A DNA stretch of 64,000 nt from Neocallimastix sp. 'constans'. Lineage: Eukaryota. Positions 2,660 through 61,983 of this stretch are shown in pieces. Location of the stretch: positions 1,054,001 to 1,118,000 of the forward strand of contig JBODTK010000014.1 in the NCBI GenBank assembly GCA_050613775.1, read 5' to 3'. Position 1 is the stretch's first letter. Each line of letters begins with the position of its first letter. The notes beneath the pieces were generated by a model. It worked only from the letters and a program-made list of their open reading frames with translations, was not told the origin of the DNA and ran no database searches. Made by a program: the position numbers and the translations under genes.

Positions 2660-3348
2660 CGATATAAAACAAATATGTGTAGCAACATATTTGTATATTT
2701 AATAATTATTAAATATTAAATTTATATCTCTTTTGTAAATAATAAAATTTGAAATAATTTCTTATTCATATATTATTCAATATTCATATATATTTATTCA
2801 TTATAATATGAAATATATTAAATATATTAAATTAATTAGTTAATTTCTTCTAAATATATATAATAAGAATATTATTATATATATATCTTAAATATTCTTA
2901 TTTATTTTAAAGTTTATATTAAAAACACATAATACCTCTATATATTATAATATAATGAAATAGTTTTAGTTATTTTAATTATAATTAAATATATATAGTT
3001 GATATTATTGATTATATTCATATTTATTATATAATTATATTCTTATATATTTAACTTTATTATTCTTATTTTCATTTTTAAGAATTATATAGTTATATTT
3101 ATTATATTTATTATTTTTAATATATATTAATTATATATTATATTATACTCCGATATATTATATTTTAAATGTATATTTATTATTATTAATATTTGTTAAA
3201 TTATTATAAAGATTTCTAATAACTACTCTTCTTTATTGTAATTTAGAGAAGACCCTTAAGGGTTTATAAATTATAATATATTAATAAAGGTTAATTAAAT
3301 ATAACGATACTATTAAAAATTAATAGAACATAAAAGTCCTGCATATCA
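2660..3348 (+). repeat. 3' LTR of Gypsy-1
   Basis: Start (c)GATATAAAACAAATATGTGTAGCAACATATTTG and end CATAAAAGTCCTGCATATCA match both ends of the LTR at 25610-26102, which is followed by a PBS. Confidence 0.75.
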
Positions 3349-3693
3349 ACATAAATAAAACGTGATCGAAAATAGCGTGATAAAATTAAAATTATGTAAA
3401 GACATAAAATTATGCAAGAGCATAACAATTAATGTAAACATAAAATTTATTACATAAATTTTATGTTAAAATTGAAATAATTTATAAATTTCTTTTTATT
3501 TTTTTTATTATTTTTATATTGATATTTATTTTATTATATTTTTAATTATTTTACTAATTATTATTTTATATTAATATTTTATATTTTATTTTATACTTTA
3601 TATTAAATACTTTAAATACTTTATAGTTATTCTAAAGTTATTGTTAATCTTAAAAGCATCAGTTATTGCTAAACTGTAAAAAGCACTATAATA

Positions 3694-3950
3694 GACGTAA
3701 AACCGAAAAGGTAAACCTAAGAGTTGTCACAAATAGACGTAAAACTAAATGTTAACCTAGGGTTGTCACTATAGATGACGTGAAACATAATAATGTAAAC
3801 CTTAGAGTTGTCACAAAATATAGACTTAAAACCAAAGAGTAATCCATATGAGTTGTCTATATCTATATAAATTTATTGGCGTAAAACCTAAGAGTAAACC
3901 AAAGTGTTGTCATATACATAGAATGATGTAATAACCGAAGAGTATTCATT
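3694..3950 (+). repeat. Array of 5-6 imperfect ~35-45 bp units GACGTAAAACC-loop-GGTAAACC..GAGTTGTC
   Basis: Units start at 3694, 3736, 3777, ~3823, ~3878 and ~3925; the same motif occurs at ~9233-9310. Confidence 0.85.
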
Positions 3951-4979
3951 CACATTAAATGATTGCAAATTTGCCGTATTTAAGATATTATAATAAAATC
4001 TATGAGTTATTAAATATGAAATTCCTTCAATAAATATTTCAATCTATATTTGATTTTTAGAATATCTAAATTCTACATTTCATTTATGTGATTATTTATG
4101 TGATTATGAAAATCCAAAATTTAATTGAAATTAAATATTTGGATTTTAGGGGGAAGTAGTAAGGAAGTATAAAGAAGTAAGTGTAGTGTTTTGAAATTTC
4201 TAATAACATGTGAAACTAAATATGAAAACGCGTGAACCAATACTTACGAAGTCAAAGGAACTACAATTCTACGAATTTACATTAGCAAAAATATTGAGAT
4301 AAAGAAACATTGAGCTAAAGAAAAATTGAAATTTTAATGAGACTCAAATTAATGAAATTCTAAATAAACAACATGAAGTTAATATATAAAGTAAGGAAAA
4401 TAATAAAAGAAATTAAATATATAATTTCAATTATTTAAAAATATTGAAAATAACAATGCTAAATATAAAAAAAAAAAAGAAACTATAATTTTCCTGAAAC
4501 TATCAAGATTATACACCATAAAATATAATAAATATAAAAGTTAGCGCTAATCTACAAAGCGGATTATAATTGAAAGTGATATAAAACCCAATATATAAGA
4601 GGTATTCACACATATAAAGATGGTATAATATCACCCTTCAAGAGAAAGGTTTCCATCATATAAATAGTATATTAAACCATAAATAATAATTATTGAGATG
4701 ATAGAGATTCATCCAAAATTAGAATTAATTTTAGGTGTAAAAAGGAAAGTTAGTTTTAGGGGGAATAATATTTACTTTTAATATATTAAAGCTAAATTAT
4801 TTAGATAGATTTACATAAAAGAAATTATATAATATGTTGTAATTTTATGAAATTTATGTATTAAAATAGTTTATATTAGAGAAAATTTAGATTTAAATAA
4901 TAATTATCATAATATGTAAATACACATATTCACCAACAAACCAATTTATTCTTTAAGAATAACTAGGTTTGAGGGGGAA

Positions 4980-5176
4980 TGTTAGAATATGTGAATATTC
5001 CATGTATACATTATTCATGTACATTACATTACATTAATATCCATAATGTATAAGCCACATATGATATATATAAATACATGTAAACTAGAGTATTACTACT
5101 CTTTGTACTCTTTATATTATAATATTCATATAATAAAGTTAACATAATTAAACACATCACTGTTAAACATTTAACA
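4980..5176 (+). repeat. Copia-type LTR (TG...CA, 197 bp) with a PPT on the left and a PBS on the right
   Basis: TGTTAGAATATGTGAA...TTAACA; same start as the LTRs at 8651 and 9686. Confidence 0.85.
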
Positions 5177-5190
5177 GATTAAGAGTCTCA
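5177..5190 (+). promoter_or_regulatory. Primer-binding site GATTAAGAGTCTCA (complement of the tRNA-Lys CUU anticodon arm)
   Basis: Directly abuts the LTR CA; reverse complement TGAGA-CTCTTAA-TC = anticodon stem + CUU loop + 2 nt. Confidence 0.8.
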
Positions 5191-5769
5191 ATGGCTCTAA
5201 TCATGAAAACAAAATAATATTATCATTATTTTGTGATCTACCGAATTAAGCTACCCAGCCGGATAAAAATTATGTATGAAAATTTTCTTGAGATCTCGAA
5301 ATTCAAAATTTGAAATTTTGAAATCCTGAAATTGAAATGATCTGAGATTGGCGAAAATAAACTTTTCTTGCACTAATGAAAATATTGATATTTTGAAGCT
5401 AAAAATAGTTATTTTCTATGATAATAATTTAAATTTAAAACTCAAAATACCGATAATAATAAACATTAAATTTAAAAATGCTAAATTTAAATTGAAAATA
5501 AATAAACAAAAATTTTAAATGTAAATAAGCATTTAAATTTAAATTTTCTTAAAAATAAACATAAAAATTTAAATTTAAATTAAGTAATTTAAATTTATAA
5601 AATGAGGAAAACAATTTTAAATTTAAAGATCTACGATATTGAAAATATTGTTATTATCAAGGATAAACAAATAATTTAGAATACTTAAATAAATTAAATA
5701 ATTTGAATTTAAATAAAACAATTTTAATTTTAAAATAGAATAAGCAATTCAGATTTAAAATATGAAAAA

Positions 5770-5990
5770 ACTAAATCTGGAAGAGTCTGTGCTGAACCTG
5801 GAGAATTGGTACATGCAATTTCTATGAGAGATAAAACATTCAGGAGGAAATAAATCATTTTGTAGCATTGAGAATTATGATAAATATTGTCAAGAAGTTA
5901 AAGTTTCAAACTTGGAAGGGAACGATTCTGATGTGGATGGAGACCATGAAGTTATAATAAGTGGAAGCCAAATTAATTATAAGATTAAGT
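5770..5990 (+). pseudogene. Possible Copia integrase N-terminal remnant
   Basis: KSGRVCAEPGELVHA resembles the rve start motif (EPLELVHSD); the rest is decayed. Confidence 0.35.
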
Positions 5991-6570
5991 CATGTTTATG
6001 GATTTTAATCTTGAGCTTAGGAATAACACTTGCACTATAACTTGTCAATATTTTGAGTTATACATTATTCATTACATATTATATTTAAAATTTCCAACAT
6101 TTATAAATAATAAAGAGTTACCATTATGTTAACCTAAATTATGATATCATTATTCAACTTTAAACCTTAATTAATCCATAGTCCATTTATATATCAATTA
6201 TATACCAAAATTTATTTAAATCTTTTAGAAAATTATTTCCAACTAACAAGGGAAAATATTTTTGCTATTTTTATAATGAAACAAGTCTAAAATACTTTAT
6301 AGTTATTCTAAAAAAATAATTAATTAAATAGTTAATTATGAATAACAAATATAAAAGCAAGAATAATTCTTAATAATTATTCTTTGCACAGTTTTATGCC
6401 AAATTTATTTTATAATTCTTTTATATTTTCGAGATAATAATTAAATACATATATTAATTAATTTTATAATTATTTTAAAATAATAAATGAATAAAATATA
6501 AAATTAAATAACTACTTAAATAAAACTTCTCCCAACAAGAGAACTTGAACCTAGGCGTACTTTATCATTT

Positions 6571-8650: not shown

Positions 8651-9871
8651 TGTTAGAATATGTGAAATATGAGTTTAAATGTATTAAAATGTAATTTATG
8701 CAATGTAATGTATAAGCCACAATATGTTAATATAAAAGCATGTAATTTAATATAATTTAATATTTGTAACTCTTTATCATAAAATATATTAATAAAATTG
8801 ACATAATTATAAACCATAAATTCATGACTCTTAACAGATTAAGAGCTCATCTGACTCTTAAAAGGATTCTTATAACAAGAAATCCATAAGCCGACCTAAG
8901 ACTATGTCAAGAAGGACATAAAAGAAGTTAAAAGAAGAATATTAGAATTGAAATCAAGATTGATCAAGATTGAAATTTAGTGATCTAAATTTCAAAATTT
9001 ATGAAAACGTGTAAATAACTAATAACTTAGCACAAGAAATCCCCCTGTATGAAGTATACACGCTTAAAGATAAAAAAGAAACGTGAAATACATTAAATAA
9101 ACATATTATTTTGAGACTCTTAATAAATGAAACCATCATAAGCATTAATTGATTATTATAAATTATTTTTTGAATACTACAAACTATTTTATTAAAGATA
9201 ATAAAATTTTTAACTAATTAAAATAAATAAAATGACATAAAAACCAAAGAGTTAATTCATGAGTTGTCAAGAGTACGTAAAACCAGAGAGGTAAACCATG
9301 TGTTGTCATCATTAATTTGGCCTGAATCCCAACGAGGTTGCCTTAATATAATATAATAGGATGGTGTAAACCCAGATAGGTATCCAATCCATATTTAAAT
9401 TTTTAATATTAAAAATACCCAAATTATAAAGGTTTTAGTCGTTTTAACCACAAAAACGTAAAATGGGTAATAATATAAATATCTAAGATAAAAATAGCAA
9501 ATAATATACATAAAGTATATATATAAAATTCAATTAATGAATAATATGAAATAGAAATTTAATAGTTAATTAAAATTTAGAATAATGATATAAATTTCAG
9601 AAAGTGTTATTGTTATGTATTGTTATGCACATATTCACCTATAAACCAAAAGTATTCATTTAGAATAACTTGGTTTAGGGGGGAATGTTAGAATATATGA
9701 AATATGAGTTTAAATGTATTAAGATGTAATTAATGTAATATAATGTATAATCCACAATATGTTAATATAAAAGCATTTAATTTTATATAATTTAATATTT
9801 GTAACTCTTTATCATAAAATATATTAATAAAATTGACATAATTATAAACCATAAATTCATGACTCTTAACA
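8651..9871 (+). mobile_element. Complete non-coding TRIM-like LTR element (1221 bp)
   Basis: 186-bp LTRs at 8651-8836 and 9686-9871 (TG...CA, about 8 mismatches by eye); TSD AATTC at 8646-8650 and 9872-9876; PBS GATTAAGAG-CTCA at 8837; PPT AGGGGGGAA at 9677-9685; no internal ORF. Confidence 0.95.
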
Positions 9872-11858: not shown

Positions 11859-12230
11859 TTTGAATTTAAATGTTTGTTTACATTTAATTGTTTATTTGAA
11901 TTTAAATGGTTGTTTACATTTAATTGTTTATTTGAATTTAAATGGTTGTTTACATTTAATTGTTTATTTGAATTTAAATGGTTGTTTACATTTAATTGTT
12001 TATTTGAATTTAAATGGTTGTTTACATTTAATTGTTTATTTGAATTTAAATGGTTGTTTACATTTAATTGTTTATTTGAATTTAAATGGTTGTTTACATT
12101 TAATTGTTTATTTGAATTTAAATGGTTGTTTACATTTAATTGTTTATTTGAATTTAAATGGTTGTTTACATTTAATTGTTTATTTGAATTTAAATGGTTG
12201 TTTACATTTAATTGTTTATTTGAATTTAAA
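11859..12230. repeat. 36-bp minisatellite, ~10 copies (NNHLNSNKQLNV on the minus strand)
   Basis: Unit GAATTTAAATGGTTGTTTACATTTAATTGTTTATTT, nine identical copies plus variants, in the IN-RT linker of Copia-A. Confidence 0.95.
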
Positions 12231-12800
12231 TTATTTTTTAATTTTGAATTTAATTGTTCATTTACAGAGTTAATTTCATTATGTAAATTTGTATTTTTAC
12301 TTACAATTTCGTCATTTTTACCATTATTATTATTAATATTATTATTCACATTATTATTAAAATTTAACTCCTTACTTACATTTTTATTATTTAAATTTAA
12401 TTCTTTGTTTACATTTCTTAAACTATTATTTACTTTATTTAAATTTAAATTATCTTTAATTAAATTTTTTAATTCAAAATAATTGCCTTTATTACTAATA
12501 TTATTATTATTATCAATGTTATTTAATATTTCCTGATTTTTATTTAAATTGGTATTATTTCCTGAATTGTTTATTGCATGTTCCCGAATTTTATTTTGAT
12601 TATTTTTAAATTTTAAATTTGAATTTAAATTTTCATTGTTTATGTTTAAATTAGAATTATTATTATTAATTAAATTGTTTTTATTTTATCATTTTCAGAA
12701 AATAAATTATTATTATTATAATCCTTTAAATTATTATCATTTTCAAAATTTACATTTAAATTATTTAAATGACCACTTTGAAAATTTAAATGAGGATAAT

Positions 12801-15904: not shown

Positions 15905-16054
15905 TGTTATAAAATTACGCTTTATTTATTTATTATTAAAAGTTCCGTATATTAAAATATTACATTGTTGATTATTTATAACATACATTTTATAATAATT
16001 TTACATATATATATGTGTGGTATATATCATCAGATATAATATGCCACTAACATT

Positions 16055-16492
16055 TATATATATATTTTATATTTATGATTTTATAATTATTTATTATTAA
16101 CTATATTTATATTTATTAATTATATATTAATTTTATATTAACTATATTAAACTTATTTCTAACATAATTAAATAACAACTTAAATAAATCTTCTCCCAAC
16201 AATATATATATTTTATATTTATGATTTTATAATTATTTATTATTAACTATATTTATATTTATTAATTATATATTAATTTTATATTAACTATATTAAACTT
16301 ATTTCTAACATAATTAAATAACAACTTAAATAAATCTTCTCCCAACAATATATATATTTTATATTTATGATTTTATAATTATTTATTATTAACTATATTT
16401 ATATTTATTAATTATATATTAATTTTATATTAACTATATTAAACTTATTTCTAACATAATTAAATAACAACTTAAATAAATCTTCTCCCAAC
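16055..16492. repeat. Three identical-looking tandem copies of a 146-bp unit spanning the Copia-A LTR / target junction
   Basis: CTTCTCCCAAC ends at 16200, 16346 and 16492 (period 146). Confidence 0.9.
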
Positions 16493-18301
16493 AATAATTT
16501 GAACTTATTCATACTTTATCATTAACTATTTAATAATAATTTATTAATAAATATAAAATAAAAATAGAGATTATACAGAATATTTTATTGTGGTTTAAAT
16601 AAATTTAGTAGTTAAAAATAAAATTTAAATTGATAATAATATTTTAATAACTAATTAAATAGATTTGATTATTTTCAATATAAAATATTATATATGAATA
16701 TTAATATATTGGGTAGGCAAGGACAATATTCTTAGCTAAAAATTTTAATACAATATAATGGAATCTAATGGAATCGGATAGATGATTTAATAAGGAATTA
16801 TAATTTGATTGGTGATTTATTAACTTAATATTTTTATTTAGTAAGATTATATGAATATTGGAAAGTTCCAATTATATAGAATAGAATAATCTATAAAGTT
16901 AGAATAGTTTATATTATTATTCTAGCACAATTAGTATTATTAGTTCATTTTTATTACATCGTTATGCCTTGATTATCGTTACTCAATGGTGCTTACAGTA
17001 CCATGCAAAATAAATGTCACTGATTTGAATCTTACTTTTTACCTTTTTTGGAATAAATAATTTATTTAAATAATTAATATTCATACCCTTACTTTAGTTA
17101 TAAGTTTTATTTAAATTATTAATGTACAATTATTAATAACCAATCATGCAATTTTTATAATAGATTTTTGAATATAAAAAATTCATGAATTCTATTTTGA
17201 CTTTGATGTCGATAGTAACATATAATTAATAATAAATGAAATAACAATATAAAACCATAAATAATTATTATATTTTCTTATTTCTGTGTTATTTGTTTAT
17301 TATTAATCAACTACAATGACCTGGTGAGATTAAACCAATTCGCTACATGAAGAAATATCTAGAAATTTTAATAAATAAATGTTTAAATAATATTTTTTGT
17401 AAAATTAGAAATATATTAGAGTCAAACCCATAAAGTCCAGCTCAGTGATCATAGTGTTTAATCACTAAACCATGTATACTAAATTCACAAAGTAAAAGGG
17501 TAAGTTTAATATAAACTAAAATAACGAATAATAAATAATTAAAGGCTAAGATGATTCAACACCTCTCTATTGTACGAAATACTAATTTTAACTTTAAATA
17601 ATTGTTCTTTAAAATTAAAATATATAGCGCCGCACTATTTCATTCTATTCATAAATAGTTGGGTGGTCTTACACTATGTAGTTTATTTATTTTAAAATAA
17701 TTAATTTTTATTTAATATTATATTATTTGATATAATTTAATAGTAACGTTAGTGTGTTAACTAAACAATCACATGTTATATTTATACAAGAGATTATATT
17801 TAATAATTGGATACATAATTAATATATTTAAACTTTCAAATCATTTATTATAAAACTATCTAAAAATAAATTTAACTATATAAAGAAATTAATAAAAATA
17901 TAATAAATAGTTGTACATTTATCGTACAAAATTAAACTAAGATTTTACTTGATTAGCTAAAATTGCTAACTGTTTTAAGATAAATCACGTTACCACGATA
18001 ATATCATTGGATAGTTATCGTTTAACCATGTATCTGTTGCACACAAGTTGATGTAAAGAACTGAATTTAAACTTAATAAAATAATTCTTTCTACAATTAA
18101 TATTAATATTTAATGTTAATCGAGAAATTAAAAAAAAATACTTGTCAAAAAGAAGAGTGAATTATAAGATATTTAACACTGTAGATTAAAATAAAAATTT
18201 TTTAGTAAAAATTATTATAAAAATTTTATTTTTATTTTAAAAAATAACTTCTATTTTATTGTTTATTATAATTATTTTCTTATAATAAACTTTTGATTTT
18301 C

Positions 18302-18820: not shown

Positions 18821-19173
18821 TAAATCTCAAACATTCCACAATATAAAATTAATTATATAGAAATATTGAATTTAATTAATTATAAATTATATAAAATAAT
18901 ATTATTATAGTATAAAATTTGGTTATTTTAATATAGACTTTTATTTTAATATTTATATAAAATATATAGTAATTATGATTTAATATAGAGATAATAAATA
19001 TAAAAAATAATTTTTTTAAAAAATTGCTATTGATATATATTAGTTAGTATTATTTGATTTAATATAATAAAAATGTTTCAATTACTTTAGTTAATAGTCT
19101 AGATATTAGTTTGTAACAATATCAAGAATCGTTATGGCTGCTAAAATGGTTCAATGATGTTAAGATAATAATT

Positions 19174-19367
19174 GAATTTCAATTCAATTTCAATTTCAAT
19201 TTCAATAATTCAGTTATTTGAATTTCAATTCAATTTCAATTTCAATTTCAATAATTCAGTTATTTGAATTTCAATTCAATTTCAATTTCAATTTCAATAA
19301 TTCAGTTATTTGAATTTCAATTCAATTTCAATTTCAATTTCAATAATTCAGTTATTTGAATTTCAAT
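19174..19367. repeat. 46-bp tandem repeat, 4 copies plus a partial
   Basis: Unit GAATTTCAATTCAATTTCAATTTCAATTTCAATAATTCAGTTATTT starts at 19174, 19220, 19266 and 19312; lies just after a TGTAAC...ATGGTTCAATG LTR-like start at 19112. Confidence 0.9.
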
Positions 19368-59337: not shown

Positions 59338-60976
59338 TTTTATTGATTAAATGTAGATTGCTTTATATTTATTATTAATTTTATTTATTATTAATTATAG
59401 ATTAATTTTTATATATTTCATTAATTATTACATGAATATCTTATGCCGCTACAATATGTATATTATACAATGTACATAATGGTTAAGCCATAATTACAAT
59501 ACATTTAATTATAATTAACTATTAACTAAATATAAGAAATAAATATATATTAAATATTATAAACATTATTTCTAACATGAGCTTTGCCTGAAAACCTAAG
59601 ATGGATCAATGTATTTCAATTCAACAACAACTGAAAAGAATGTTGTAATTATCTCATACGAATTATTCCTGATATCGCTTTTTCTCAACTCAAGGAAAAA
59701 AGAATTAAAAAAAAAAATCTGAAGAAATTTTCCATTTACAAACACATTTTAAAAAAAAACCTTCAAACAAAAGGAAGAAGAATCGAAGGTTTTTTCTTTA
59801 TGGAAAATACGACCATTATGGTAATAATTACCTCAAAAATAAAAGAAACAAATATAATAAATTAAAAATAATAAAAATAATAAAAATAATATAAATAATA
59901 AAAAATCATTTTTGAAGTTCAATAAAAACAATATTAATAATAAACAAGTTTATTCAATCAATAAAGATAATTATCAAGATGATTTTTCAAAAGACCATTT
60001 TTCACAACGCAATAGAAATTAACAACATAGAAATCAACAATGAAAGTAACAACATTTCAACCAATGTAATCAATATTAATTTTACAATTTGGATTATAGA
60101 TTTTAATAAGTACAACTAATAACGCTCAATGATTTACGAAAATATTTTAATATAAACCTTATTTAATAGAGAAATTTATTATTTATCTGAAATAATAAAT
60201 TTAATTATACAAAAAATTTATTTTTGTTTACTTTTTTATTTACTAAAACAATAATTATGAATATAACACCTTCTTTTTTTCTTTCTTTTAAAAATCCTAA
60301 GCTACTCTCTTAAAAAAAAAAAAGTTATTTATTTTTATTTTTTTTTTTTTTAATCATACTATATTTGTATTAATGACTAATTAATATATATATAAATATA
60401 TAATTTTTTTTAATATTGTTATATTAACATACTCTTCTGTTTACTTTCTTTTATTGGAAGGGCTCTTTAAATGACTAAATTAATTTAATATAAATCAATA
60501 TTTAATTTAATTAATATTAGATAATAATTTGAAGAAGATTATGTAATAATAATTTCATACATTCCGTTAAAAATATAAACATTTATCATTTAAGATTTTA
60601 ATATATCATTAACCAATAAGTTATTATAAATAAATTAAATATACTTATATAAATTAAGAGAAATAAAATTCTTCTTAAAAATATCTTCTCTATTTTTATA
60701 ATTAATAAATACTTTATAATAAAATATTTTAAAACACATTCTTATCTTTATAAAATAAAACAATATTTGTATTTATTAAATTGAGTGTCTCTTATCCTTC
60801 TTTAACAGATTAAGAGTCTCAATCTCAACCGATTGAGAATAAAATAAAAAAAAAAGCTAAGTGTTATTCAATATATATAAATTTAATTAACTGAATATTA
60901 CAAAATTCTAATACCTATATTTATATATGAAAAATACTATTATTTTAATATTAATTAAAAGGAACAAATATAACTA

Positions 60977-61236
60977 TCCTCTTGAAGTATACAAAATTGA
61001 AATAAAAGTCAGCTATGCAAAAAATAAGCTGAGAATCAAAACAAAAGTCAGCTATGCAAAAATAAGCTGAAATTTAAAACGAAGGTCAGCTATACAAAAA
61101 TAAGCTGAGAATTGAAATAAAAGGTCAGCTGTGCAAAATAAGCTGAGAGTTAAAATAAAATACAAAATTAAATAAAATAAATATAATTCAAAGTTATATG
61201 AATATTAATATATAAGACATATATACTTCAAGAGGA
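60977..61236 (+). repeat. 15-bp perfect inverted repeat enclosing four ~39-bp hairpin units
   Basis: TCCTCTTGAAGTATA (60977-60991) pairs with TATACTTCAAGAGGA (61222-61236); TCAGCT...AGCTGA at 61009, 61048, 61086 and 61125. Confidence 0.9.
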
Positions 61237-61983
61237 AATTCAAAATATTATGGTCTTGAGATCGATATTATACAAAAGTCTACATTAAAGGATAAAAAAA
61301 ATTACAAATATAACTAATTAAAATATTATTTTAATATATATAAATTTATTGTATTTATTTATATATTTAAAATCATATTTTCATTAAACATAACAAAAAA
61401 AAAAAAAAAAAAAAAAAAACCAATCATAATAGAAATATTAAATATATTTCCAAGTTAATATAACAGATAAATTATGGCATGTAAACTTAATTAAATAAAT
61501 ATCCAATAACAAAAGAACAATCATTAAATATTAATAATATAATGTCTTATGACATGATTAAACGGCACACACATGAATCATAAAAATATGAAACAATAAT
61601 TTAAAGGTAACAACTTTAGTCAGGGAATATTACCATAACATATAAACAAAATACAATAAAATATAAATTAAACCTAAATAATAGATGGTCAAACTATTGA
61701 ACAGAATTATATTACATAATTTAAAATTCTATTAATTTAATATAAACGATAGTCATATTATTGATCATTTTCACAGGAATGATAATAATTTAAGTTTGTT
61801 CCTAAAATAATAACAATCAATATCCAGTGATATACAAAATTTAATATAAATCATAGGACTATTAATAAACCAAATAAAAAGTAAATAAAATTTTTAAAAA
61901 ATGTACAATTTTTAAATACAATAAAAATAATACTACAATTAAAATAAACAAACTCTAAACAACATATTTCAAAATTAATTAAA

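Follow-up and report, generated by a model that had tools for sequence, protein, structure and literature searches.

TRIMs and Copia-mobilised fungal elements such as Helenus share with the family described here short LTRs, a primer-binding site (PBS), a polypurine tract (PPT), a lack of gag-pol and a 5-bp TSD, together with a non-TGG PBS common to Copia elements and tandem arrangements (PMC10886601). LTR-mediated retroposition, maize Bs1 and Ty cDNA capture likewise place cellular coding sequence inside LTR-element sequence that is mobile non-autonomously (PMC5131818). At the level of RNA, the packaging sites of Ty1 and retroviruses are multi-stem-loop regions near the 5′ end, in which packaging-dimerisation signals comprise several stem-loops near the PBS with palindromic or complementary loops and are needed in cis by helper-dependent RNAs (PMC5454406). 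In the CTE, RTE and musD export elements, conserved internal loops recur in non-coding parts of retroelement RNA (PMC4338338), and the minimal hammerheads of Penelope-like elements and retrozymes are tandem, tiny three-helix motifs in retroelement repeats, with short stems and small palindromic loops (PMC4209133). Few of the cis-acting RNA signals in non-autonomous LTR elements have been mapped.

The window analysed here, 64,000 nucleotides of Neocallimastix sp. 'constans' DNA, is 11–32% GC and crowded with decayed Gypsy and Copia coding regions. At 3694–3947 (+) it contains an array of five long units of ~35 nt and one short unit, hosted by a non-autonomous Copia-type LTR element of anaerobic gut fungi. 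The array is very probably a selected sense-strand RNA structure, and we assign a probability of roughly 0.4 to the reading that it is a multivalent cis-acting RNA site whose probable job, judged from sequence, would be packaging by a helper Gag; granted a selected RNA structure, the odds of packaging being its job are about even. The motif, a small one with good outer-stem covariation, and the gene-carrying non-autonomous Copia-type family are both apparently undescribed: no description of either in gut fungi was found in the literature searched, most subscription journals and Repbase lying outside its scope, and a Repbase entry for the family is possible. Neocallimastigomycota has no occurrence in PMC10886601, and the cited part of PMC8216456 covers five ascomycete genomes. 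The features of the host elements in the window are as follows.

3614–3636, + strand: 23-nt direct repeat, left copy, bounding a permuted unit
4109–4156, + strand: conserved hairpin whose last bases form an internal PPT-like purine run
4971–4979, + strand: polypurine tract
4980–5176, + strand: single LTR (TG...CA) of the permuted unit, which holds the 3694–3947 array
5176–5190, + strand: primer-binding site of anticodon-arm type
5762–6040, + strand: remains of a decayed cargo-like ORF whose C-terminus is hydrophobic, occupying the ORF slot of the relatives
6115–6128, + strand: conserved cargo/backbone junction, TACCATTATG box
6290–6312, + strand: 23-nt direct repeat, right copy
8651–9871, + strand: cargo-free element of TRIM size (1.2 kb), with LTRs at 8651–8836 and 9686–9871, TSD AATTC, PBS, array and PPT

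LTRs of the family measure about 185–255 nt, and PBS and PPT are present while gag-pol is absent. The element at 8651–9871 has LTRs with TG...CA ends and 8 mismatches in 186 nt (95.7% identity), a 5-bp TSD and four retained units; the original prediction had hung on the motif being kept in such TSD-flanked copies, and in this one, moderately young copy it is. The PBS lacks a TGG start, is common to the coding Copia copies at 15905 (−), 51481 (−), 59338 (−) and 60807 (+) and occurs also at 8836. It presumably resembles the complement of the anticodon arm of tRNA-Lys(CUU). In plants, half-tRNA primers are confined to Copia lineages, and the cited part of the survey names half-tRNA-Met and half-tRNA-Ile only (PMC6317226). 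Unlike Helenus-type TRIMs as described in the cited part of PMC10886601, the family exhibits no tRNA-like sequence in its LTR, and it has an internal region of 0.85–3 kb, a structured array and exchangeable ORFs. Comparison of the family LTR with five coding-Copia LTRs in the window returned scores at background. An inverted orientation of the family LTRs with respect to those of the coding Copias found no support. On the minus strand of one related contig (L008), ~1250–1980 from the strand start, a broken Copia RT/RNase H lies between family modules and LTR-PBS-array, which suggests derivation from a coding Copia.

The unit at 3614–6312 that holds the main array is permuted, running from the 3′ half (array to PPT) through the LTR at 4980–5176, PBS, leader and decayed ORF to the junction at 6115, with about 250 nt of family backbone missing at the join. 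Its bounding 23-nt repeat occurs in two exact copies in 64 kb (0 expected) and is absent in 24 of 24 loci. This arrangement points to integration of a one-LTR circle or to erosion of a tandem; contigs L020 and L010 contain head-to-tail or circular units too. The backbone also contains two PPT-like purine runs, at 4141–4156 and 4755–4769, which are conserved in L001, L013 and L020 and are possible extra plus-strand priming sites.

Relatives were collected by a pattern scan of metagenomes, which yielded 23 loci; the pattern demands one intact unit, so that retention of the array among them is ascertained. Ten of the 23 are AT-rich with arrays of 4–8 units, and L011 duplicates L010, giving nine gut-metagenome contigs. 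The other 13, lone matches outside fungal-like AT-rich DNA, were left out; one of them, L012, was a false positive in which a 69-nt coding repeat lies beside a ribonucleotide-reductase-like ORF and giant-virus-like genes, and it still reaches 30.7 bits with model R1. Scans of viral contigs with the pattern gave 0, 1 and 0 matches and no array, the single match (L024) being a lone one with no array in the 301 bases examined, and a scan of prokaryote genomes gave 0 matches. Module order in L001, L013, L020 and the window differs from that in L010 and L014, and the array is present in all. Some contigs join 3680–3690 to 4107–4133 with unknown letters between, and may represent another module order or array-less copies. 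Sequence 3300–5300 is best represented in faecal metagenome runs and in runs from two organisms. The evidence of transcription is a single metatranscriptome contig of 163 nt, possibly derived from DNA.

The units of the motif in the window are as follows.

3694–3728, + strand: long unit 1, with outer stem, RTAAA box, hairpin 2, AA and hairpin 3 in a three-way layout
3736–3767, + strand: long unit 2
3777–3812, + strand: long unit 3, with a 4-bp inner stem
3823–3857, + strand: long unit 4
3878–3911, + strand: long unit 5, with arms GGC...GTC
3925–3947, + strand: short unit, with a single inner hairpin and GAT...TTC arms
4578–4607, + strand: lone short unit outside the array (E 0.024), absent from the training set
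4619–4657, + strand: extended member with GATGG...CCATC arms
9234–9385, + strand: second array, with long units at 9234–9268 and 9274–9307 and short units at 9319–9342 and 9363–9385

Each unit combines a 3–5-bp outer stem with a conserved R-T-R-A-A box. Long units follow the order GAC/GGC arm, R-T-R-A-A, hairpin 2 (AC...GT), two bases, hairpin 3 (AC-C-N2-4-G-W-GT), T and GTC arm, for which a three-way fold is plausible; the short unit has the same plan minus hairpin 3. The structured array of the original prediction, with its units and GAC/GGC...GTC outer arms, its four quoted inner hairpins and its conserved linkers, was located in full. Extended members like that at 4619–4657 occur also in L001, L008, L014 (twice) and L020. 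The 10-mer box was found nine times at ≤1 mismatch (five within the 3694–3947 array), as compared to a shuffle mean of 1.65 and with a count of nine reached in 0 of 100 shuffles, and a descriptor, itself written from the array units, gave seven matches, all inside the two arrays, as compared to a mean of 0.03 in 100 Markov simulations. TRF reports the array as period 45, 3.9 copies, 71% matches. Long unit 1 scores 51.5 bits with the covariance model, of which it is a training member, and its minimum free energy fold is the proposed fold (−2.9 kcal/mol, z 0.16). The array alone is not thermodynamically stable: its folding energy displays no excess over shuffles (z 0.34 on the plus and −0.96 on the minus strand), and 14 single units folded no better than shuffles (z −1.5 to +1.2). 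Many hairpin-3 loops are palindromes (CATG, CTAG, CATATG) or complement one another (CTAAG/CTTAG), a property that would be compatible with kissing-loop dimerisation.

Weak stems, invariant unpaired boxes and repetition together make the pattern of a multivalent protein-binding RNA. As stems of this kind would not hold by themselves, they would need clamping by a protein. If the element has to enter a helper particle, the most economical role for such a site would be in Gag packaging. According to the proposed mechanism, the 4–8 units of an array would together form one multivalent site for protein in the sense RNA, helper Copia Gag would bind there and package the element RNA, additional unit copies would add avidity, and Copia enzymes would prime and integrate the transcript in trans. 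Captured ORFs would enter between leader and array, which would shift the array from the leader, about 200–400 nt after the PBS, to a 3′ position. As the original prediction has it, the array might also let the element outcompete its helper. Every significant model match falls on the strand that is sense for LTR, PBS and PPT. The array is retained in the smallest cargo-free copy and through reordering of neighbouring modules, and in cargo-free copies it is positioned about 200–560 nt after the PBS (397 nt in 8651–9871, 212 nt in L008). The packaging signals of Ty1 and retroviruses, in the cited part of PMC5454406, are single-copy 5′ domains common to the autonomous element, whereas the site described here is a small tandem repeat absent from the coding Copias of the window. 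Neither of the two models matches these coding copies, which are decayed, and thus no helper sharing this signal was found among them. An unrelated array at 61009–61147 (+), of four TCAGCT...AGCTGA hairpins of −5.9 to −7.4 kcal/mol each, follows the PBS at 60807 by 202 nt, precedes a Copia gag-pol ORF at 61948, and is possibly another family's leader signal.

The main rival to packaging is nuclear export or RNP trafficking, in which a CTE/RTE-like array would carry unspliced AU-rich RNA and cargo mRNA to the cytoplasm via Mex67-Mtr2 or another host protein. The partial likeness of the array to the CTE loop in its letters we take as a lead. The conserved internal loop, variable distal content and tandem arrangement, with a position 3′ of the ORF in cargo-bearing copies, all suit such an element; Nxf1/Tap is bound by a pair of nearly identical loops in CTEs, and an RNA transport element is known from the musD retrotransposon (PMC4338338). 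However, the stems of the array are far shorter than those of CTE, RTE or musD, no sequence or model match to these is demonstrated, Rfam included, and the near-PBS position in cargo-free copies suits packaging at least equally. We judge export an unlikely job. As a 25–35-nt repeat with natural compensatory variants, the array provides a ready mutational series for packaging and export tests alike.

Evidence for selected base pairing in the RNA comes foremost from the outer stem. Long units were aligned as A1 (34 units, omitting nine identical or near-identical ones, five from L020, three from L007 and one from L010) and short units as A3 (22 units). The middle outer-stem pair in A3 is never mixed, being G-C in 12 units and A-T in 10; its 10 double-changed cells were reached in 0 of 500 shuffles and its covariation score in 3 of 500, although such cells count sequences rather than events and, since units are related by descent, overcount. 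The inner neighbouring pair is C-G in 10 units and T.T in 12, again with no mixed states. The arms are thus GAC/GTC in 4, GGC/GCC in 5, GGC/GCT in 1, GAT/TTC in 6 and GGT/TCC in 6. Occurrence of all four combinations of middle and inner pair requires at least three double changes, and descent from a single event cannot account for a pattern in which all four arm types occur. The original prediction had claimed selection on pairing in an outer stem formed within each unit, and both its register and the claim itself withstood these comparisons: among 57 distinct units the middle pair is Watson-Crick in 52, G.T in 4 and A.C in 1, as compared to 30, 12 and 3 of 45 for the alternative register across linkers, which was thereby ruled out. 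Held-out members obey the same pairing rule, with GAT...TTC arms in L007, L004/L020 and at 4578 in the window, and with GATGG...CCATC as against AATGG...CCATT in L014. In two other runs a T>C difference at 3910 converts the arms of long unit 5 to GGC...GCC, replacing G.T with G-C. Divergence of the units is below that of the rest of the element in all five pairwise comparisons, at about half the rate (e.g., 0.08 vs 0.24 and 0.14 vs 0.23). We judge it highly likely that the outer stem is under selection.

Evidence from the long units and inner hairpins is more limited, and here the prediction held in part. Covariation in the enlarged alignment, strong among short units, was weak among long ones: in the model-fitted long-unit alignment the covariation score was equalled by 170 of 500 shuffles and the double-changed cells by 19 of 500, partly because rows are misregistered (several visibly off by one), and RNAalifold predicted 0 pairs on both long-unit alignments. 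The outer stem lacks its outermost pair in 6 of 34 long units. Of the predicted variation of the inner hairpins with pairing kept, the exchange of C-G for A-T at the third pair stands, while the AC...GT core is otherwise almost invariant. At this third pair of hairpin 2, 30 distinct sequences comprise C-G in 10, T-A in 2 and A-T in 2, i.e., 14 paired as compared to a shuffle mean of 9.7 (p 0.034, uncorrected for phylogeny); in 11 of the 12 remaining cases that start with C the G sits, by eye, one base deeper, and one unit has the second pair swapped to T-A. Hairpin 3 displays no double change, and its first pair is T.T in 5 of 34 long units.

A quite unlikely alternative is that the array is a DNA-level site (an enhancer, insulator or protein-binding dyad), or a neutrally decaying minisatellite whose pairing reflects GAC/GTC symmetry. 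Consistent with this, there is no folding signal, unit number is variable, strand asymmetry is weak (G.T 6 vs A.C 5 after excluding the consensus G.T position) and tandem arrays are frequent in non-coding parts of LTR elements (PMC6317226, cited part). Yet the spacing of the arms varies, unit length ranging from about 22 to 39 nt, C-G alternates with T.T, and G.T with A-T, in the manner of RNA helices, the two outer-stem pairs are never mixed in the short units though loops vary freely, and GC content is 36% in units as compared to 23% across the element at 3633–5175.

The original prediction spoke of a non-coding element, which is only partly right: the family carries cargo ORFs. Seven of the nine contigs (L001, L004, L007, L010, L013, L014 and L020) have an ORF at one conserved junction, and L005 and L008 show no junction. 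By inspection of their translations the seven ORFs are mutually different. L001 encodes a SUEL-lectin membrane protein, L020 a coiled-coil H-type lectin with one internal stop, and L013 a 376-aa protein related to an annotated glycosyltransferase; the remaining four have no clear family. No Pfam match was obtained for the L004, L010 and L013 ORFs, nor a significant one for the remnant at 5762–6040, and the L004 ORF has no homolog besides itself. Anaeromyces robustus has a homolog, at 44% identity, of an ORF carried by a related element. Backbones are closely related: L007 and L020 share 97% identity downstream of the junction and fall to 54%, the background level, upstream of it, and L004 and L020 share 98% from 120 nt onward. 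Enclosure of the ORF on both sides is observed only in L020, L010 and the window remnant; L020 and the remnant have LTR-PBS-leader upstream, the L010 upstream region matches the leader (73 bits vs 44 for the control), and the other five contigs end too early upstream or score at background. Different ORFs on closely related backbones would be consistent with cassette-like gene capture. In the retroposition systems of PMC5131818, as far as the cited part describes them, switch points fall anywhere and copies are often partial, whereas here all seven ORFs stop 23–109 nt upstream of a fixed, TACCATTATG-type junction. Cassette exchange, if real, would be a mechanism for gene duplication and spread in gut fungi. 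Only tentatively do we extend this to a dedicated gene-shuttling retroelement of gut fungi, mobilised by Copia, with one slot that swaps whole ORFs (lectins, a glycosyltransferase) and a tandem RNA motif as packaging tag, which if true would be a standing engine of gene-family expansion. PMC6712302 counted 67 copies of the Gal/SUEL-lectin domain across five gut-fungus genomes, whereas every other fungal genome that it examined lacked the domain.

Carriage of cargo raises the alternative that the array is a 3′-UTR element of cargo mRNA, serving translation, stability or localisation with no role in retrotransposition. The array is downstream of the ORF in all seven cargo-bearing loci, several of the ORFs are uninterrupted and two start with a hydrophobic signal-like stretch, as this alternative would expect, but the array is also kept in the cargo-free element at 8651–9871, in the second L010 unit, which is empty of cargo, and in L008. 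We consider this alternative improbable.

Comparison with known RNA families upheld the prediction of an undescribed motif outside the hammerhead class. Rfam gave no match on the array at E≤10 (window 3300–5400) or E≤5 (nine loci) and nothing at gathering score across 64 kb, and resemblances to the hatchet, c-di-GMP-I, K-turn, loop E and CTE motifs, which we treat as leads only, have no Rfam support. The core strands of the hammerhead are CUGANGA and GAAA. That the units are catalytically dead type II hammerhead relics with a collapsed stem I, possibly reused as a binding motif, is very improbable: box order fits the type II layout by eye, CUGANGA is matched perfectly in two units and a TGAA box is present in seven, and the short stems and small, often palindromic loops recall minimal hammerheads (PMC4209133), but these strings are short and A-rich, both core strands occur together in 0 of 56 units, no hammerhead-like string pair lies inside any array, stem I cannot form from the 2–3 nt at its place, no hammerhead was matched at either Rfam threshold, and the host, unlike those of the described minimal hammerheads, is of Copia type.

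Scans of the window for bacterial promoters and terminators were at chance, and no tRNA was found. Near-perfect tandem repeats are present at 11859–12231 (36 nt), 16056–16496 (146 nt) and 19172–19367 (46 nt), of which the 36-nt repeat lies inside a Copia pol region and the 146-nt repeat looks like a triplicated LTR segment.
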